A stretch of DNA of 64,000 nucleotides from an uncultured Alphaproteobacteria bacterium (GCA_903821695.1 CAIJLX010000027.1:1006-65005); one strand, 5' to 3'; shown: positions 6,943 through 53,246, counted from the stretch's first letter. A program made the numbers and translations. The notes: generated by a model from the sequence alone, not told the origin.

Positions 6943-7316
6943 TGGATATAACCCCGCTTATTAAGGGCGACCGAAAGATCATTAACTCCTACGGTGCCGA
7001 GCGTTTCATCATCAGTGGCCACGAATATAAAAGCTCGATTATTCTGATGCCGGGCGCAGTATCGACTTGGGAAAATATCACTCCCTTTGTGTGGTCCGAT
7101 GAATTAGTAGAAATATTGATCAACGCTATTCCCGGCACTGAAATTTTACTAGTCGGCACGGGCCAAAAAATAGTGCCGATCCCAACCCGCCTACGTCAAT
7201 ATTTCCGCACTAAAAATATACATGCTGATGTGATGGATACAGGCGCTGCCTGTCGAACCTATAACGTATTGCTCTCTGAAGAACGCCGAGTCGCGGCTGC
7301 GTTGCAGTTGGTTTAA
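6942..7316 (+). CDS. Mth938-like / DUF498 (NDUFAF3-family) protein
   Basis: ILLVGTGQKIVPIPTRLRQYFRTKNIHADVMDTGAACRTYNVLLSEERRVAAAL matches the conserved Mth938-domain core. One-nt overlap with the secD stop. Confidence 0.8.
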   Translation: MDITPLIKGDRKIINSYGAERFIISGHEYKSSIILMPGAVSTWENITPFVWSDELVEILINAIPGTEILLVGTGQKIVPIPTRLRQYFRTKNIHADVMDTGAACRTYNVLLSEERRVAAALQLV

Positions 7317-8626
7317 GCCTTTTTAAACTCAGCGCCGATGCCTGCCATCAGTTCCATGAAATTCGGGAAGCTGGTGTTGATCATGCTTACGTCATCTACC
7401 CCGACTGGCTTTTTAGCAACCATACCCAGAATTAAAAAGCTCATCGCAATCCGGTGATCGAAATGGGTTTCAACCAACCCGCCACCAGTTGCTTTGCCGC
7501 CCGTAACGGTGAGCGTATCGCCTTCAATTTTATGCGTCACGCCATTGGCCTCAAGCCCCGCCGCAACGGCCGCCAAGCGATCACTTTCTTTTACCCGTAA
7601 TTCCTCCAGCCCTTCCATGATGGTATCGCCTTCCGCCATCGCCGCAGCAATAGCAAGAATTGGATATTCATCAATCATCGAAGGTGCACGCGAGGCTGGC
7701 ACTTTGATGCCTTTTAGCTTGCTCGAGCGCACACGGATATCGGCCACCAATTCGCCCGCTACTTCAGTTTTATTTTTAAATTCGATATCAGCGCCCATTT
7801 CCAGCAACGTCACATAAAGCCCAATCCGTAATGGATTAATGCAGATATTCGGCAGCGTTATATCAGAGCCTTTCGTAATCAGCGCCGCCACGATGGGGAA
7901 CGCTGCTGACGAAGGATCGCCGGGCACCGTCAGATCAAATGCTTTCAATTCCGGTTGACCTTTGAGCGTAATGGAATGCTCACCCGATTCCACTTCTACG
8001 CCAAGATATTTCAACATCCGCTCCGTATGATCGCGTGTGGCAATCGGTTCGACCACGGTTGTTTTTCCGGCGATGTTTAGTGCGGCCAATAGAATAGCGG
8101 ATTTCACCTGCGCGGAGGCTACCGGCAACGTATAATTTATGGGCAATGCTTCGCGTATACCGGTTACAGAGAGTGGCAATTTCTCGCCCGTATGCGATAA
8201 AAATTGTGCGCCAGATTGTGCGAGCGGAATAGTCACTCGGCTCATTGGGCGTTTGCGTAGGCTTTCGTCGCCGTTGAAAAAACTGGTGAAGGGATAGCTC
8301 GACACAAGGCCCATCATCAGCCGTGCGCCGGTTCCGGAATTTCCCATATAAAGCACATCGTTCGGCTCGGTTAAGCCGCCAGTGCCGACGCCGTCGATCC
8401 GCCAGATAGTGGCTTTGTTTTTGCCCTTGGTTTTGGTGATGTTCACGCCCATCGATTGCAGGGCTTGGGCGGTGTGGATTACATCTTCGCTTTCGAGCAG
8501 GCCGTGGATTTCGGAGGCGCCGTTTCCTTGGCTTCCGAAGATCAACGCACGGTGCGAAATGGATTTATCACCGGGGACGAGAAGTGTGCCTTTTAAGGCG
8601 GCAACTTTATGAGATGTGACTGACAT
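7313..8626 (-). CDS. aroA: 3-phosphoshikimate 1-carboxyvinyltransferase (EPSP synthase)
   Basis: LVPGDKSISHRALIFG, GNSGTGARLMMG, RVKESDR and FDHRIAMSF motifs. Confidence 0.93.
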   Translation of the reverse strand: MSVTSHKVAALKGTLLVPGDKSISHRALIFGSQGNGASEIHGLLESEDVIHTAQALQSMGVNITKTKGKNKATIWRIDGVGTGGLTEPNDVLYMGNSGTGARLMMGLVSSYPFTSFFNGDESLRKRPMSRVTIPLAQSGAQFLSHTGEKLPLSVTGIREALPINYTLPVASAQVKSAILLAALNIAGKTTVVEPIATRDHTERMLKYLGVEVESGEHSITLKGQPELKAFDLTVPGDPSSAAFPIVAALITKGSDITLPNICINPLRIGLYVTLLEMGADIEFKNKTEVAGELVADIRVRSSKLKGIKVPASRAPSMIDEYPILAIAAAMAEGDTIMEGLEELRVKESDRLAAVAAGLEANGVTHKIEGDTLTVTGGKATGGGLVETHFDHRIAMSFLILGMVAKKPVGVDDVSMINTSFPNFMELMAGIGAEFKKA

Positions 8627-8679
8627 GCGCCCTACATATCGCGTTTACTATAAATAGTCGATACTCTAGAAATATTTAT

Positions 8680-9282
8680 ATGTGGCTCTCTTTTTTCCTA
8701 TTCGAACTGCGCTCCACCGCCCGCCGTGGGGCAGATTTGCTGCAGGCCCCGCTGTTTCTGCTGATGGGCGCCATGTGCTTCCCACTCGCCGGAAACCCGC
8801 AAGCTGCCAGCCTTTATGCCACTAGCATTCTCTGGGTATTGCTGCTGCTCTCAAATTTCATGATGCTCCAAGGCATCTGGGATAAAGATGCGGATTCCGG
8901 CGGCCTGGAACAAATGCTCCTCTACCCCATCACAACCACCGATCTGATTTCCGCCAAATATCTCACCTTCTGGCTCTGCTATTCCCTACCAGCCCTCATC
9001 ATATTACCCGTCATCAGCCTATTGCTACAGCACAGCCTCCCAATACTCCCCATATTCCTTGGTAGCATATTATTCTCTGCCATCGGCTTCTTAGCCGCGA
9101 CCCTCACCATCAATCAAAACCAATCCCCCATCTTGCGCGCACTCTTGATCCTACCACTCTATATCCCGATATTAATCTTCGGCGCAGGTGGAAGCCTTCC
9201 AGTGTTAGCTGGATTAGTATTTCTATATATACCAATATGTTTAGGTTTTAGTGTGATAGCCGTGCGCGATCAAATAAGCTGA
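8680..9282 (+). CDS. ccmB: heme exporter protein CcmB
   Basis: Six-TM, ~200-aa protein with a CcmB-like N-terminus (FELRSTARRGADLLQAPLFLL) and LLILPLYIPILIFGAG. No ccmA or ccmC is adjacent. Confidence 0.7.
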   Translation: MWLSFFLFELRSTARRGADLLQAPLFLLMGAMCFPLAGNPQAASLYATSILWVLLLLSNFMMLQGIWDKDADSGGLEQMLLYPITTTDLISAKYLTFWLCYSLPALIILPVISLLLQHSLPILPIFLGSILFSAIGFLAATLTINQNQSPILRALLILPLYIPILIFGAGGSLPVLAGLVFLYIPICLGFSVIAVRDQIS

Positions 9283-9750
9283 TTATTTCGCAATTTTATT
9301 GCCGATTGCAGCGCCGCCGACGGCGCCAAGAGCGCCACCCGCTAGTGCGCCCGCTGAGGTAATAGCCATCATCTGCTGAATAGAGGGGGCAATCACATTT
9401 GTGGCTACTGTTTGTTTTATGGCTTCTTCAGTTACCAATCCTGCCGATGAGGCAAATGCAGCACCACCTAAAATCGTGCTCCCTAATGAAAAACCGAGCA
9501 GAGAACACGCAGCAGAAGCGAGATAGTTCATCACGCTACGTTTTTCATCACGTTTCCCTAATAATGCATCTCCAAGTGCCAAACCGATAACAGCACCCAC
9601 AATAGGAATGCCAAAACCGAGTGCAAGTGCAGCGCCGCCAGTTACAGCTGTTACTTCAGCAGCCGTCAATAACGCAGCCGCAACTTGCGAAGCCGCAATG
9701 ACCCCAACAATCGAAGATACACCCGAAACAATAGCGCCTGCTTCTGCCAT
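9283..9750 (-). CDS. Ala/Gly-rich glycine-zipper membrane protein, 155 aa, no family assigned
   Basis: Composed almost entirely of A/G/S/V/I/L/T, with GxxxG ladders (VGAVIGLALG; GALAGGALGAVGGAAIG). No signal peptide or lipobox. Confidence 0.6.
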   Translation of the reverse strand: MAEAGAIVSGVSSIVGVIAASQVAAALLTAAEVTAVTGGAALALGFGIPIVGAVIGLALGDALLGKRDEKRSVMNYLASAACSLLGFSLGSTILGGAAFASSAGLVTEEAIKQTVATNVIAPSIQQMMAITSAGALAGGALGAVGGAAIGNKIAK

Positions 9751-9993
9751 GGTGAGAGTATTACAGATGTTTGTTACAAAATGATGACTAATCCTATTAG
9801 TCCCTCATAAGTTACATATACCCTACAATTTATAGGTACTTAGTGGGTCATTTTGTCATAAAAAACTTCACACTTTCTTTCCTTAAATAGTTATATAATG
9901 ACGCTAATTCTCCGTGCTATGTCACAAATTCAGATGTGGCCGGTATTGGCCTTCTGAATATAGACGGAGGGTCTTCATGAAAGGAGGTACTCT

Positions 9994-10212
9994 GTGTCCT
10001 TCAGAATTGAGGTTGTTCCTTCCTCAGTGAGAAAAAGTCCGGAGGAAGGACGTAGGATTGCTGCAAAGTTACAGAAATCCTACGAAGAATGCAGAGCTAG
10101 AGACGAGGCTCTTGCCAGTGGGCAGCAAGAGCAAGAAGACTACTGGGCTTTGCAAGACATCTTAGGACCGGGTCCGGTTCATCCTTATGTGGATAGAGGG
10201 CCGCTTCATTAG
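9994..10212 (+). CDS. possible small protein (72 aa, GTG start); alternatively part of a non-coding RNA
   Basis: A strong AAAGGAGG lies 6 nt before the GTG. Against coding: Arg is coded mostly by AGA/AGG, unlike the neighbouring genes, and the ORF contains two perfect 9-bp hairpins. Confidence 0.35.
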   Translation: MSFRIEVVPSSVRKSPEEGRRIAAKLQKSYEECRARDEALASGQQEQEDYWALQDILGPGPVHPYVDRGPLH

Positions 10213-10237
10213 AAAGTAAGGTGAGATTTTGAATTAG

Positions 10238-10275
10238 AGCGCCGTGGGATTATTCCCCGGCGCTCGTTTTTTTTA
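10238..10275 (+). terminator. rho-independent terminator
   Basis: GAGCGCCG (10238-10245) pairs with CGGCGCTC (10259-10266). A T-tract (G + T9, 10267-10276) follows and abuts the recR stop. Confidence 0.8.
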
Positions 10276-10857
10276 TTACATACTCTGCCGGCTTTTTAGC
10301 GCTGCACCCAACGTACCTTCGTCCAAATAATCCAGCTCGCCACCTACCGGAATGCCGTAGGCGATGCGGGTTACGGGGATGTTTAGGGGTTTTAATTGTT
10401 CGGTAATGTAGAAGGCGGTGGTTTGGCCGTCGACGGTGGCGTTGGTGGCGAGGATGACCTCTTTTAAGCCCTCGGCTCGTTTGAATAATTTGGGGATGCC
10501 GAGTTGGTCGGGGCCTCTGCCATCCATCGCGGAAAGCGTGCCGCCTAATACGTGATACATGCCTTTGAATAGGCCGCTACGTTCAATTGCCCAGAGGTCG
10601 GCGACTTCTTCGACGACGCAAATTTGATCATGCGGGCGGCGTTGATCGCTGCAGATATTGCAGGGTGAAGAGGTATCAAGATTGCCGCATATTTCACAAA
10701 TTTTGATAGAATACAGCGTTTGCTGAAGTGCCACGATGAGTGGCTGAAATAATTTTTCTTTGTTCTTAAATAAATGCAACACCGCACGCCGTGCCGAGCG
10801 GGGGCCAAGGCCGGGAAGTTTGGAAAGCAACGTTGCGAGGTTATCTATCGGTGTCAT
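10276..10857 (-). CDS. recR: recombination protein RecR
   Basis: LPGLGPRSARR helix-hairpin-helix, a CxxC...CxxC zinc finger (CEICGNLDTSSPCNIC) and a Toprim region. dnaX-ybaB-recR synteny. Confidence 0.95.
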   Translation of the reverse strand: MTPIDNLATLLSKLPGLGPRSARRAVLHLFKNKEKLFQPLIVALQQTLYSIKICEICGNLDTSSPCNICSDQRRPHDQICVVEEVADLWAIERSGLFKGMYHVLGGTLSAMDGRGPDQLGIPKLFKRAEGLKEVILATNATVDGQTTAFYITEQLKPLNIPVTRIAYGIPVGGELDYLDEGTLGAALKSRQSM

Positions 10858-14592: not shown

Positions 14593-14679
14593 ATAAGTTC
14601 TCTATCGTATTGCGAGGCAAGGAGGCCTGCCTTGTCACGCCGTAGCCTTGGCGAAGGCGGAAGGAAACATCAAAAGAAC

Positions 14680-14772
14680 AGTGAGGCTGGACGACCCGAC
14701 AAGGATCCTGTTATGGCTGCTTCGGTTAAGACCTGACCAGATTGGCAGGGTTGCCGCCCGCCCAACCTCAGG
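14680..14772 (-). ncRNA. ffs: signal recognition particle RNA (4.5S / small bacterial SRP RNA)
   Basis: The reverse strand reads GGUUGGGCGGGCGGCAACCCUGCCAAUCUGGUCAGGUCUUAACCGAAGCAGCCAUAACAGGAUCCUUGUCGGGUCGUCCAGCC. The conserved domain IV strands GGUCAGGUC and GAAGCAGCC are present at the same spacing as in E. coli 4.5S, and the flanks pair (GGUUGG/CCAGCC, GGCAA/UUGUC, CCUG/CAGG). The ends are approximate. Confidence 0.7.
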
Positions 14773-48089: not shown

Positions 48090-48841
48090 CCTTTAACCTT
48101 CAACACTGGATCCAGAGCTTTTTTCCCATCTCGAATTGCGAAATGGATCTGCGGGGTTTGGACGTTGCCGGTTTGGCCTACGGAGGCGACGACCTGGCCT
48201 AATTTCACTTTATCACCCTTTTGCACCGTGATTTCTTTGGCGTGGGCGTAGGCGGTTAACCAGCCGTTTTTGTGGCGGATGATAAGCAGGTTTCCGTAGC
48301 TCGCTAGGTCATTTCCGGTATAGACCACTGCTCCATCCATCGAGGCATGGATCGGCGAGCCTTCTGGGGCGGAGATATTCACGCCATCATTATATAATCC
48401 GCCCGATTTCGCGCCGAAACGGGAGATGACTTGGCCATTGACGGGCCAGATGAATTTGCCTTTGCGGTCGACTTTGGCATGCACCGCAAACGGCTTGAAT
48501 CCCTCGTTTTCCTGTAAGATCGCGGAAACGGGGGTGGCTTCGGGTTTAAAGTGCGGAATCGGCACGCCCGCGATGATTTTGCTATCAGGCTCTTCAAGGC
48601 TGCTATGCGGCTGGCCTTTTGTTGGTGGTGGCAGCTCCTCAATGTTCATTTCTTTGATTGCGGCAGGTTGGCTTTGTTTCACATTGCCATAGACCGGTCT
48701 GAAGGGAATATTTTCATCCGGATAGACCGAAGGCGTAATCGATTGTGGCGCCCCACTATCATGCAGCGCAATGGGCGCGGATTTTTGTGTGCCGCATGCG
48801 GTTAGGGAAAAAAGACAGAGAAATGCTAGCGTTTTATGCAC
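48086..48841 (-). CDS. LytM/M23-domain lipoprotein, NlpD-like (catalytic residues appear degenerate)
   Basis: Lipobox LTAC|G. The C-terminal LytM domain reads GVNISAPEGSPIHASMDGAVVYTGNDLASYGNLLIIRHKNGWLTAYAHA...GQTGNVQTPQIHFAIR. The HxxxD position reads YNDGVN and the HxH position reads QIH. Confidence 0.8.
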   Translation of the reverse strand: MHKTLAFLCLFSLTACGTQKSAPIALHDSGAPQSITPSVYPDENIPFRPVYGNVKQSQPAAIKEMNIEELPPPTKGQPHSSLEEPDSKIIAGVPIPHFKPEATPVSAILQENEGFKPFAVHAKVDRKGKFIWPVNGQVISRFGAKSGGLYNDGVNISAPEGSPIHASMDGAVVYTGNDLASYGNLLIIRHKNGWLTAYAHAKEITVQKGDKVKLGQVVASVGQTGNVQTPQIHFAIRDGKKALDPVLKVKG

Positions 48842-50091
48842 TCAATTCCTCCCATATAGGGCCTCAAAACTGTTGGCACTATAACAGAACCATCTGCCGT
48901 TTGGTAGTTTTCTATAATCGCCACCAACGCCCGCCCGACCGCCAAACCGGAACCATTCAACGTATTCACAAAAGCCGTACCCTTTTCGCCCTTCTGACGG
49001 TAACGAGCCTTCATGCGACGAGCCTGGAATGTCCCAAATTGCGAACAGCTGGAAATTTCGCGATAGGTCTTCTGCGCCGGCAACCATACCTCGATATCAT
49101 GCGTTTTCTGGCTTTGAAAGCCAGTGTCGCCCGTGCACAAAATAATCACCCGATACGGTAGTTCCAACTTCTGCAAAATCTTCTCCGCACATTCCGTAAT
49201 GCGCTGATGCTCGACTTCCGCCTGCTCTGGCGTAGTAATGCTCACCATCTCGACTTTATTAAACTGATGCTGGCGAATCATCCCTCTGGTATCACGGCCG
49301 GCAGAACCTGCTTCCGAACGGAAACAAGGCGTAAGCGCGGTGAAGCGAAGAGGCAATTTTTCCTCATCAATAATGCTATCTGCAACAAGATTGGTTACTG
49401 GTACTTCCGAAGTCGGAATCAAATAATGTGTTTCGCCGGCCTTAAATAAGTCTTCCTTAAATTTTGGCAACTGTCCTGTGCCCACCAATGCATTATCTTT
49501 AACCAATAAAGGCGGGTTTACCTCGGTAAACCCGTGTTCTTCGGTTTGCACATCGAGCATAAATTGCCCCAATGCACGTTCGAGTTTCGCAAGCTGGCCT
49601 TTAAGCGTTACAAAACGTGCGCCGGAAATTTTAGCAGTCTGTTCAAAATCCATCAATTTCAGGCCCTCGCCGATAGCCACATGGTCTTTCGGTTCGAAGC
49701 TGAATGTTTTGGGTGCGCCCCATTTGCGGAGCTCTTGGTTGGCACTTTCGTCTGTGCCCTCAGGCACTTCGTCTAGCAACAAATTCGGGATGGTAAGCAG
49801 CAATTGGTTCAGCGGATTATCGAGGCTATCTTCGCCCTGCCCGGCTATTTTTTCCTTCATTTCCTTAGAGCGAGCGAGCAAATCATCGGCGTTTTCGCCC
49901 TTGGCTTTGCGCATGCCGATTTCTTTAGCAAGGGCGTTCATTTCCTGTTGTAGTTGCTGGCCCTTGGTTTTATCAGCACGAACTTCCGCATCCAGGCGCA
50001 AAATCTCCTCTGACAGAGGCGCAAGTCCTCGGCGCTTTAACCCGGCGTCAAACTGCTGCGGGTTTTCCCTGATCCATTTTATGTCGTGCAT
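48826..50091 (-). CDS. serS: serine--tRNA ligase
   Basis: MHDIKWIRENP, a coiled-coil arm, and class II motifs (FRSEAGSAGRDTRGMIRQHQFNKVE, GSGLAVGR). Confidence 0.96.
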   Translation of the reverse strand: MHDIKWIRENPQQFDAGLKRRGLAPLSEEILRLDAEVRADKTKGQQLQQEMNALAKEIGMRKAKGENADDLLARSKEMKEKIAGQGEDSLDNPLNQLLLTIPNLLLDEVPEGTDESANQELRKWGAPKTFSFEPKDHVAIGEGLKLMDFEQTAKISGARFVTLKGQLAKLERALGQFMLDVQTEEHGFTEVNPPLLVKDNALVGTGQLPKFKEDLFKAGETHYLIPTSEVPVTNLVADSIIDEEKLPLRFTALTPCFRSEAGSAGRDTRGMIRQHQFNKVEMVSITTPEQAEVEHQRITECAEKILQKLELPYRVIILCTGDTGFQSQKTHDIEVWLPAQKTYREISSCSQFGTFQARRMKARYRQKGEKGTAFVNTLNGSGLAVGRALVAIIENYQTADGSVIVPTVLRPYMGGIECIKR

Positions 50092-53117: not shown

Positions 53118-53194
<77 letters not shown>

Positions 53195-53246
53195 ATCCTT
53201 CGCCCTTTGGGCTTCGGATGGCTTACGCCGGCGATAGGATTGAGAT

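Follow-up and report, generated by a model that had tools for sequence, protein, structure and literature searches.

We found that the gap between the gly-zipper gene and recR holds a strain-specific insertion, which very probably is recent and foreign in origin. The stretch of DNA analysed, 64,000 nt long and called the window below, contains this gap of 525 nt at 9751-10275. In the explanation that we favour, with moderate confidence, the insertion is a recently acquired, foreign, moron-like single-gene cassette that functions as a protein-coding gene, specifying a 72-aa helical orphan protein on a highly structured mRNA; the rest of our confidence is divided among a non-coding small RNA, a dual-function RNA and inert DNA. 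The element is best classed with the orphan small genes gained by horizontal transfer, as a so far unique member of that group. An earlier note on this DNA had correctly seen a gap of about 525 nt between these two genes, but missed that the unit inside it is a 486-nt insertion. The locus is composed as follows.

9283-9750, minus strand: gly-zipper gene, 155 aa, Gly/Ala-rich, membrane-like
Ending at 9788: left flank of the insert, a conserved motif upstream of the gly-zipper gene
9789-10274, plus strand: strain-specific insertion of 486 nt (alignment A1, gene maps of the relatives, scaffold L165)
10275: right flank of the insert, the base before the recR stop codon (10276-10278, minus strand)
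10276-10857, minus strand: recR

The surroundings (aroA, ccmB, recR, ybaB, dnaX) form a core chromosomal region, and the gly-zipper gene product matches the Pfam Gly-zipper model weakly (E 0.02). In order to compare this locus with related ones, contigs L161-L164 were reached through homologues of the gly-zipper protein (88%, 73%, 61% and 61% identity), and L167-L181 through homologues of RecR (94%, 93% and 92% identity). These close relatives of the window's RecR came from a large protein collection; no RecR closer than 63% was found in GTDB representative genomes or JGI metagenome contigs. The arrangement downstream of recR in the relatives was as follows.

L161 (recR DNA 94% identical to the window): gly-zipper gene 41 nt downstream of recR, no insert
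L170-L179: gly-zipper gene 39 nt downstream of recR, no insert
L162: gly-zipper gene 45 nt downstream of recR, no insert
L167 and L168: recR overlaps ccmB, gly-zipper gene absent, no insert
L180 and L181: aroA 42 nt downstream of recR, no insert

The insert was thus missing at this locus in every one of these relatives. In L161, L162 and L170-L179 the distance from recR to the gly-zipper gene was 39-45 nt, as against 525 nt here. When the window was aligned with L161, L170 and L162 (alignment A1), the insertion showed clean boundaries: homology broke off at 9788, where the last homologous bases read ...TTACAAAATGATGAC, and restarted at 10275, with 1-9 nt in the relatives at the position of the insert. 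The insertion was precise, and neither neighbouring gene was harmed. A 700-bp scaffold from another sample (L165, ERZ18651058) carried an identical gly-zipper gene and the same left junction, followed by the first 28 nt of the insert. Because this independent scaffold crosses the same junction, an assembly artefact is ruled out. Several independent losses would all have had to share the same boundaries; a single gain in the window's lineage, after it separated from L161, is by far the more parsimonious account, and a gain at that point makes the insertion young. In this clade the whole interval between recR and aroA behaves as an indel hotspot, where the gly-zipper gene, ccmB and a gene for 119 aa are each variably present among the relatives. 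In the relatives, the gly-zipper gene is probably either transcribed together with recR or served by a promoter in the conserved motif region. In L163 the conserved motif precedes the gly-zipper gene behind a different upstream neighbour; this makes it probable that the gly-zipper gene is served by a promoter of its own and is not disturbed by the insertion.

The route of entry might be sought in a non-autonomous mobile element, such as a MITE, an IS200/IS605-derived palindromic element or a repeat like the Rickettsia palindromic elements. IS200/IS605 elements make no target-site duplication, and none was seen at the insert, which is rich in hairpins and has them near both ends, one (9786-9802) lying across the left junction and the other (10237-10265) stopping 9 nt short of the right end. 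MITEs and IS200/IS605-derived elements, however, occur in several copies per genome and have defined ends, either terminal inverted repeats or subterminal hairpins with a specific target site. No further copy of the insert, whole or partial, was present in the 64 kb of the window or in 181 related loci (about 1 Mb), and the product of the open reading frame occurred on a single contig among 15 billion proteins. The positions 9789 and 10274 carried no terminal inverted repeats, no transposase was found, and a search for transposon ends at the insert gave none. We therefore regard a mobile element of this kind as very improbable.

Inside the insertion, we mapped the following signals and structures.

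9894-9899, plus strand: perfect -10 hexamer TATAAT, a candidate promoter
9907-9972, plus strand: leader stem-loop of 66 nt, consisting of the three nested helices noted earlier plus extensions (inverted repeats I7 and I15)
9910-9915 with 9964-9969: helix CTCCGT / ACGGAG
9928-9934 with 9953-9959: helix (A)TTCAGA / TCTGAA(T)
9938-9941 with 9948-9951: helix GGCC / GGCC
9977-10030, plus strand: upstream reading frame of 17 codons (ATG; MKGGTLCPSELRLFLPQ*), with GGAGG-N6 before the ATG
9980-9987, plus strand: Shine-Dalgarno sequence AAAGGAGG, 6 nt before the GTG at 9994
9994-10212, plus strand: ORF72, 72 codons, GTG start and TAG stop, predicted to encode an orphan hydrophilic protein
10017-10050, plus strand: hairpin A, perfect 9-bp stem (10017-10025 / 10042-10050) with a 16-nt loop, within ORF72 (I4)
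10031-10042: RNase-P-reminiscent string GAAAAAGTCCGG, in the loop of hairpin A
10051-10084, plus strand: hairpin B, perfect 9-bp stem (10051-10059 / 10076-10084) with a 16-nt loop (I2)
10108-10132, plus strand: hairpin C, perfect 8-bp stem (10108-10115 / 10125-10132) with a 9-nt loop, within ORF72 (I5)
10237-10274, plus strand: intrinsic terminator, stem 10237-10265 and T8 at 10267-10274

Of the transcription signals, we take the terminator first. Its stem consists of 12 bp, is G+C-rich and contains one bulge. With -24.9 kcal/mol and the T8 run, it was by far stronger than any other hairpin followed by a T-run in the 64 kb, the next one reaching -14.3. The strong terminator claimed earlier was therefore found in its place. 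It stops one base short of the stop codon of recR, a gene that runs towards it from the other side. The beginning of the unit fared differently. A sigma70-like promoter had been proposed from TTCACA and TATAAT; the TATAAT hexamer is real, but TTCACA (9867-9872) sits 21 nt upstream of it, outside the 16-18 nt spacing, no -35 hexamer was found at 16-18 nt from TATAAT, and a promoter scan returned 0 sites on both strands. Hence, of the self-contained plus-strand unit described before, the leader hairpin, the Shine-Dalgarno sequence, the small reading frame and the strong terminator were borne out, whereas the -35 element of the promoter was not.

The three nested helices and the two perfect 9-bp hairpins were likewise all located where they had been reported. 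Hairpins A and B share an identical geometry (9-16-9 nt) and abut directly. Hairpin C had been absent from the earlier list. We then compared the predicted stability of the RNA with that of shuffled sequences. The region 9900-10275 reached a minimum free energy of -145.1 kcal/mol, as against -113.1 ± 5.6 kcal/mol after dinucleotide shuffling (z -5.7, with 0 of 100 shuffles as stable). When its parts were folded separately, the reading frame gave z -3.7, the 3' end z -4.6 and the leader hairpin z -4.65; the last of these (9906-9975) had a local minimum free energy of -28.2 kcal/mol, which none of 200 shuffles matched. The AT-rich left part of the gap (9789-9899) showed no excess structure (z -0.35). 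When 71 tiles, each 220 nt long, were sampled across the whole window, the lowest score belonged to the tile at 9901, with z -5.1 against a background mean of -0.20 (sd 1.39). The plus strand folded better than the minus strand (-119.3 versus -103.2 kcal/mol, with 15 versus 7 G-U pairs). The better folding of the plus strand agrees with the orientation of the terminator.

The codons of ORF72 were also permuted among synonymous positions, which keeps both the protein and the codon composition. The native sequence reached -80.6 kcal/mol, compared with -61.6 ± 4.2 kcal/mol for the permuted ones (z -4.5, 0 of 300), whereas 40 chunks of real genes treated in the same way gave z -0.38 ± 1.04 with a minimum of -2.96. 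Structure beyond chance was thereby upheld for the unit overall, at the top of the ranked tiles and beyond what the peptide requires. Folding thus exceeded chance on five measures, of which the synonymous permutation shows it to exceed the requirement of the peptide; the helices are therefore an RNA-level property of the plus strand and not a by-product of the peptide sequence. In the global minimum-energy structure, the main Shine-Dalgarno sequence and the GUG were partly paired, and the 5' end (9905-9910) paired with 10229-10234, just before the terminator; the ensemble was diffuse. Within the leader stem-loop, which would lie at the 5' end of the transcript, the sequence GGAGG (9966-9970) is contained in the 3' arm.

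By its size of about 370 nt, the unit might be a housekeeping RNA, and the earlier note had considered RNase P RNA, tmRNA and 6S RNA. A cmscan of the whole window at gathering thresholds returned only tRNA-Ile (53119-53192) and SRP RNA (14677-14772, minus strand). A permissive cmscan of 9700-10350 (E <= 10) produced no row for RNase P, tmRNA, 6S, ROSE or a riboswitch, and gave eight rows at chance level (E 0.18-8.8; ctRNA_pGA1, SpF01 and others). The best of these, ctRNA_pGA1 (E 0.18, 20 bits), aligned with the terminator hairpin alone, and the weak rows were rejected for this reason. ARAGORN found no tmRNA, tRNA-Ile being its sole prediction in the window. The statement that the unit belongs to no assigned RNA family was therefore confirmed by cmscan at the gathering threshold and at E <= 10 as well as by ARAGORN, and the suspected kinship with RNase P RNA, tmRNA or 6S found no match in any of these searches. 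In detail, the covariance models of RNase P RNA (RF00010/RF00011), which describe a P4 pseudoknot with conserved CR-I and CR-V and a P1-P18 core, had no match in the whole window or in 9700-10350, and an essential gene would be expected in all close relatives, whereas L161, L162, L167/L168, L170-L179 and L180/L181 carry no such element at the locus. A tmRNA, in one piece or in the two-piece alphaproteobacterial form, would combine a tRNA-like domain with a reading frame for the tag peptide; it was rejected, as ARAGORN found none and Rfam gave no tmRNA or alpha_tmRNA match. The 6S model, a long interrupted helix with a central bubble, had no match at E <= 10. The RNase-P-reminiscent strings do exist, yet even at E <= 10 no RNase P match accompanies them. 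The 9-mer AAAGUCCGG, located in the loop of hairpin A and in the first bases of its 3' arm, resembles the CR-I region of RNase P, and this likeness is a coincidence. Apart from it and the size, nothing speaks for any of the three RNAs. As the element is absent from every relative examined, which is impossible for an essential RNA, a conserved housekeeping RNA is ruled out, and we give RNase P RNA, tmRNA or 6S RNA virtually no credence.

We next asked whether the unit is translated. The 72-codon frame and its strong Shine-Dalgarno sequence were found as previously described, in the arrangement AAAGGAGG-N6-GTG. Among the 48 long ORFs of the window, 7 had a Shine-Dalgarno core of at least 4 nt upstream of the first start codon and 41 had none; the longest core was at most 6 nt, as compared with the full 8 nt at ideal spacing before ORF72. 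Arginine is encoded by AGA or AGG in 6 of 7 cases, against about 10% in the window's genes, and the bias reported from the sequence was thus real. The synonymous-codon score (-0.27) fell below those of all 231 host chunks of 70 codons (minimum -0.17). The amino-acid composition score (0.068) stood at the 20th percentile of real genes and was reached by 4.8% of off-frame windows. G was enriched at codon position 1 (0.39), and none of the other five frames had a codon score as high as the reading frame itself. The combined codon score was -0.07; 99% of the host gene chunks scored higher, and 6% of off-frame windows matched it. The stop codon lies 24 nt ahead of the terminator stem. Taken together, the coding status of ORF72 is supported but not proven. 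The insert's expression signals are alien to the host genome. As the Shine-Dalgarno sequence, the terminator and the Arg and synonymous codons are all alien while the composition is protein-like, the evidence from codons and signals points to a real protein-coding gene from a different genomic background. In Bacillota and their phages, AAAGGAGG, GTG starts, AGA-rich arginine, 5' stem-loops and strong intrinsic terminators are typical. We speculate that the same features of the insert reflect a likeness of the Bacillota type.

In another reading, the foreign insert carries a structured small RNA, about 365 nt long and non-coding, with ORF72 and the Shine-Dalgarno-like AAAGGAGG being incidental or serving as pairing elements. 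In favour of it are the extreme, plus-strand-specific folding scores, the structure beyond the need of the peptide and the codon usage unlike that of the host; besides, a plus-strand ORF of at least 72 codons arose by length alone in 6% of shuffles, and the host hardly uses Shine-Dalgarno sequences, so that AAAGGAGG need not be a ribosome-binding site. What tells against it is the specific coincidence of a canonical 8-nt Shine-Dalgarno sequence, an ideal 6-nt spacing, the first start of the longest ORF and a stop closely preceding the terminator: an ORF of at least 72 codons with even a 4-nt core was obtained in only 0.7% of dinucleotide shuffles of the insert. The amino-acid composition and the G periodicity at codon position 1 are protein-like, Rfam offers no match, and there is no conservation in which covariation could be shown. 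On balance, we consider a purely non-coding RNA unlikely.

A further small frame complicates the start region. The 17-codon upstream ORF overlaps the Shine-Dalgarno sequence and the start codon of ORF72 in another frame and stops in the loop of hairpin A. This frame may serve to couple or attenuate translation of ORF72, or it may be noise.

To learn more about the predicted product (MSFRIEVVPSSVRKSPEEGRRIAAKLQKSYEECRARDEALASGQQEQEDYWALQDILGPGPVHPYVDRGPLH), we examined its sequence and searched for homologues. The protein is hydrophilic (E8, R7, S6, P6, A6 and so on), with a stretch reading MSFRIEVVPSSVRK..., and has neither a signal peptide nor a transmembrane segment. An AlphaFold2 single-sequence model consisted of one long helix over residues 16-56 (mean pLDDT 69), followed by a Pro/Gly-rich C-terminal tail, and Foldseek of this model against the PDB gave 0 hits. 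A word-indexed search of 5.8 billion proteins returned ORF72 itself only. An exhaustive phmmer search of 1.84 billion representatives added to ORF72 itself one further protein, P0003 (E 3.5e-4), an internally repeated, Ala/Glu-rich sequence of 556 aa that matches residues 16-53; we judged this match compositional and rejected it. No homologue was found in Pfam, NCBIfam, PHROGs, PADLOC or the PDB sequences, nor in IMG/VR viral or JGI metagenome contigs, and neither ORF72 nor the RecR of the window was on record when looked up by exact sequence. A six-frame search of plasmids reached a best E of 2. The best phage tblastn match (E 0.3) lay inside the HNH endonuclease (274 aa) of an Erwinia jumbo phage and was rejected, and an AbrB/MazE-like motif seen in 'RIEVVPSSVRK' was dropped, as Pfam gave no hit at E <= 1. 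At the DNA level, the insert had no match in phages; one AT-rich hit of 33 nt in the plasmid collection (E 0.04) was discarded, and exact 18-mer and 29-mer scans of IMG/VR yielded two lone 18-mer hits with dissimilar flanks, which were put down to chance. By these searches, the predicted product of ORF72 is an orphan protein.

The orphan status, together with the very recent date of the insertion, the candidate promoter without a -35 element and the indel hotspot between recR and aroA, is also what one would expect if the insert were filler, that is, a fragment of foreign or mobile DNA lately captured at the hotspot, unexpressed or functionless, whose gene-like signals go back to the donor. 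No part of the cassette is missing or damaged (intact ORF, perfect stems, intact terminator), its insertion spared both neighbouring genes, and the same junction occurs in a second sample; these facts speak against filler, although each would also be compatible with inert DNA. We hold inert DNA to be unlikely.

For a functional single-gene cassette, the signals suggest the following course of expression. From the -10 hexamer (9894-9899), transcription would be expected to begin near 9906, and the mRNA of roughly 365 nt would open with the 66-nt stem-loop, which probably protects the 5' end. AAAGGAGG-N6-GUG would then guide ribosomes to the start of ORF72, yielding a soluble orphan protein of 72 aa that is for the most part helical. 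The hairpins inside ORF72 probably stabilise the message or restrain translation, or may be a legacy of the donor. The terminator at 10237-10274 would end the transcript at the recR stop codon, so that recR would be spared antisense transcription, and would place a hairpin immediately after the stop codon of recR. Against the full reading as a functional cassette it must be said that the excess of structure in ORF72 (z -4.5) is also expected of a non-coding structured RNA, and that the insert is young (94% recR DNA identity), so that intact signals are no proof of function in this host.

Among known systems, the phage morons described by Hendrix and colleagues come closest. A moron comprises one coding region, which is flanked by a promoter and a terminator of its own and lies between genes that are adjacent in related genomes; its composition is deviant, and the mechanism of its insertion is unknown (PMC4378225). 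Our insert likewise consists of one small ORF with its own expression signals, including a factor-independent terminator, and lies between genes that are neighbours in relatives (recR and the gly-zipper gene, 39-45 nt there and 525 nt here). Its codon usage and signals differ from those of the neighbours, indicating recent acquisition from elsewhere. As to the promoter, the insert has a clear terminator but only a TATAAT hexamer without a -35 element. It differs from morons in residing in the core chromosome (aroA, ccmB, recR, ybaB, dnaX), with no phage or prophage, and in that its protein lacks homology to any phage protein. By analogy, the insert may be said to work like a moron, yet it is not one in the strict sense.

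The insert also resembles lineage-specific ORFan small genes acquired by horizontal transfer: its gene is short, without homologue and of atypical codon usage, and is absent from a relative with 94% identical flanking DNA. Unlike these, its mRNA is unusually structured, with three perfect hairpins of 8-9 bp in 219 nt of coding sequence in addition to the 66-nt leader hairpin, and its translation and termination signals are far stronger than any the host genome uses. Similarities to the mRNA of hok/sok type I toxin-antitoxin systems lie in the compact, highly folded RNA of roughly 400 nt, in the short upstream ORF overlapping the start of the main ORF and in the pairing between the 5' and 3' ends (9905-9910 with 10229-10234) predicted ahead of the terminator. 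In contrast to hok/sok, the ORF72 product is hydrophilic and lacks a transmembrane segment. In hok/sok-like systems, an antisense RNA encoded in cis or in trans represses toxin translation; no gene for such an RNA is evident here (the promoter scan of the minus strand was empty), and there is no match to hok/sok or any other Rfam model. The ORFs of 17 aa and 38 aa in the insert contained no transmembrane-like stretch. A small hydrophobic membrane toxin of type I was rejected on account of the hydrophilic ORF72, and the likeness to hok/sok is one of form only.

Dual-function small RNAs such as SgrS/SgrT, RNAIII/hld and SR1/SR1P are structured transcripts of a few hundred nt with a small ORF led by a Shine-Dalgarno sequence. 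The insert shares this layout, but ORF72 fills about 60% of the transcript, conservation is lacking, and it has no known base-pairing target or seed region. A bifunctional transcript of a kind not described before would be an RNA of roughly 365 nt in which a 66-nt stem-loop, two abutting hairpins with 9-bp stems and 16-nt loops, an 8-bp hairpin and the terminator follow in order, acting as an RNA and being translated into 72 aa, carried as a mobile mini-cassette between distant bacteria; or else the unit would represent a new class of structured non-coding RNA of which this is so far the only sequence. We view these possibilities as doubtful.

In summary, our results describe a young, strain-specific insertion with the make-up of a complete small gene. 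For annotation, the unit should not be called rnpB, ssrA or ssrS, but a hypothetical small protein gene on a strain-specific insertion. No long-standing question is opened by it, and because it is a single known copy without homologue, generalisation is not yet possible. If the reading as a functional foreign cassette is true, the locus would be a clean and datable case in which a foreign mini-gene, complete in itself, has entered an interval of the core chromosome. Such a gene would have come with a strong site for ribosome binding, a terminator of its own and an extensively folded mRNA, and would have met a host that is nearly without Shine-Dalgarno sites and canonical terminators. It would thus provide a natural test of alien expression signals in such a host, and would bear on how orphan small proteins enter genomes outside prophages.

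The interval between recR and aroA (window 7313-10857) was compared with the corresponding contigs of close relatives, L161 and L162, reached through homologues of the gly-zipper protein, and L167, L168 and L170-L181, reached through RecR homologues. In these relatives RecR is 89-94% identical, and the gly-zipper gene, ccmB, a 119-aa gene and the 486-nt insert are each variably present or absent. Within this clade, the interval is a hotspot for indels.

L161 1190-1549: extra 119-aa gene

The host is an uncultured alphaproteobacterium, whose RecR finds a best match of 63% among GTDB species representatives; among named matches, Rickettsiales and Rickettsiaceae MAGs rank highest, at 66-68%. Across the whole window, Shine-Dalgarno motifs are nearly absent from this genome, with no core of at least 4 nt in 41 of 48 long ORFs, and strong canonical intrinsic terminators are lacking. 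When 220-nt tiles were ranked for structure, window 49501-49720 came second (fold z, a folding-energy score, of -3.9), and falls within a long ORF at 48826-50091 (minus strand). Two RNA genes were located elsewhere in the window.

Window 14677-14772, minus strand: bacterial small SRP RNA
Window 53119-53195, plus strand: tRNA-Ile(GAT)

The former lies upstream of the dnaX-ybaB-recR block (minus strand), with two more long ORFs between them, and the latter stands alone, without adjacent rRNA genes.

In the window as in all the relatives, a conserved motif, TTACAAAATGATGAC, stands some 20-40 nt ahead of the start of the gly-zipper gene. This motif contains the palindrome TTTGT-T-ACAAA and is preceded by CAGATGTTTG.

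Window 9765-9788, plus strand: motif upstream of the gly-zipper gene
L161 524-538 and 1052-1066: motif of this gene
L162 3389-3403: motif of this gene
L163 5964-5978: motif of this gene
L164 9-23 and 522-536: motif of this gene

It is kept even in L163, whose gly-zipper gene has a different upstream neighbour. A second copy, in direct orientation, follows shortly after the gene in L161 and L164. In the window the motif is followed without a gap by the 486-nt insert, which carries a partial inverted copy of the motif (window 9848-9867). The motif may serve the gly-zipper gene as an operator or promoter, or may instead be a site of recombination.
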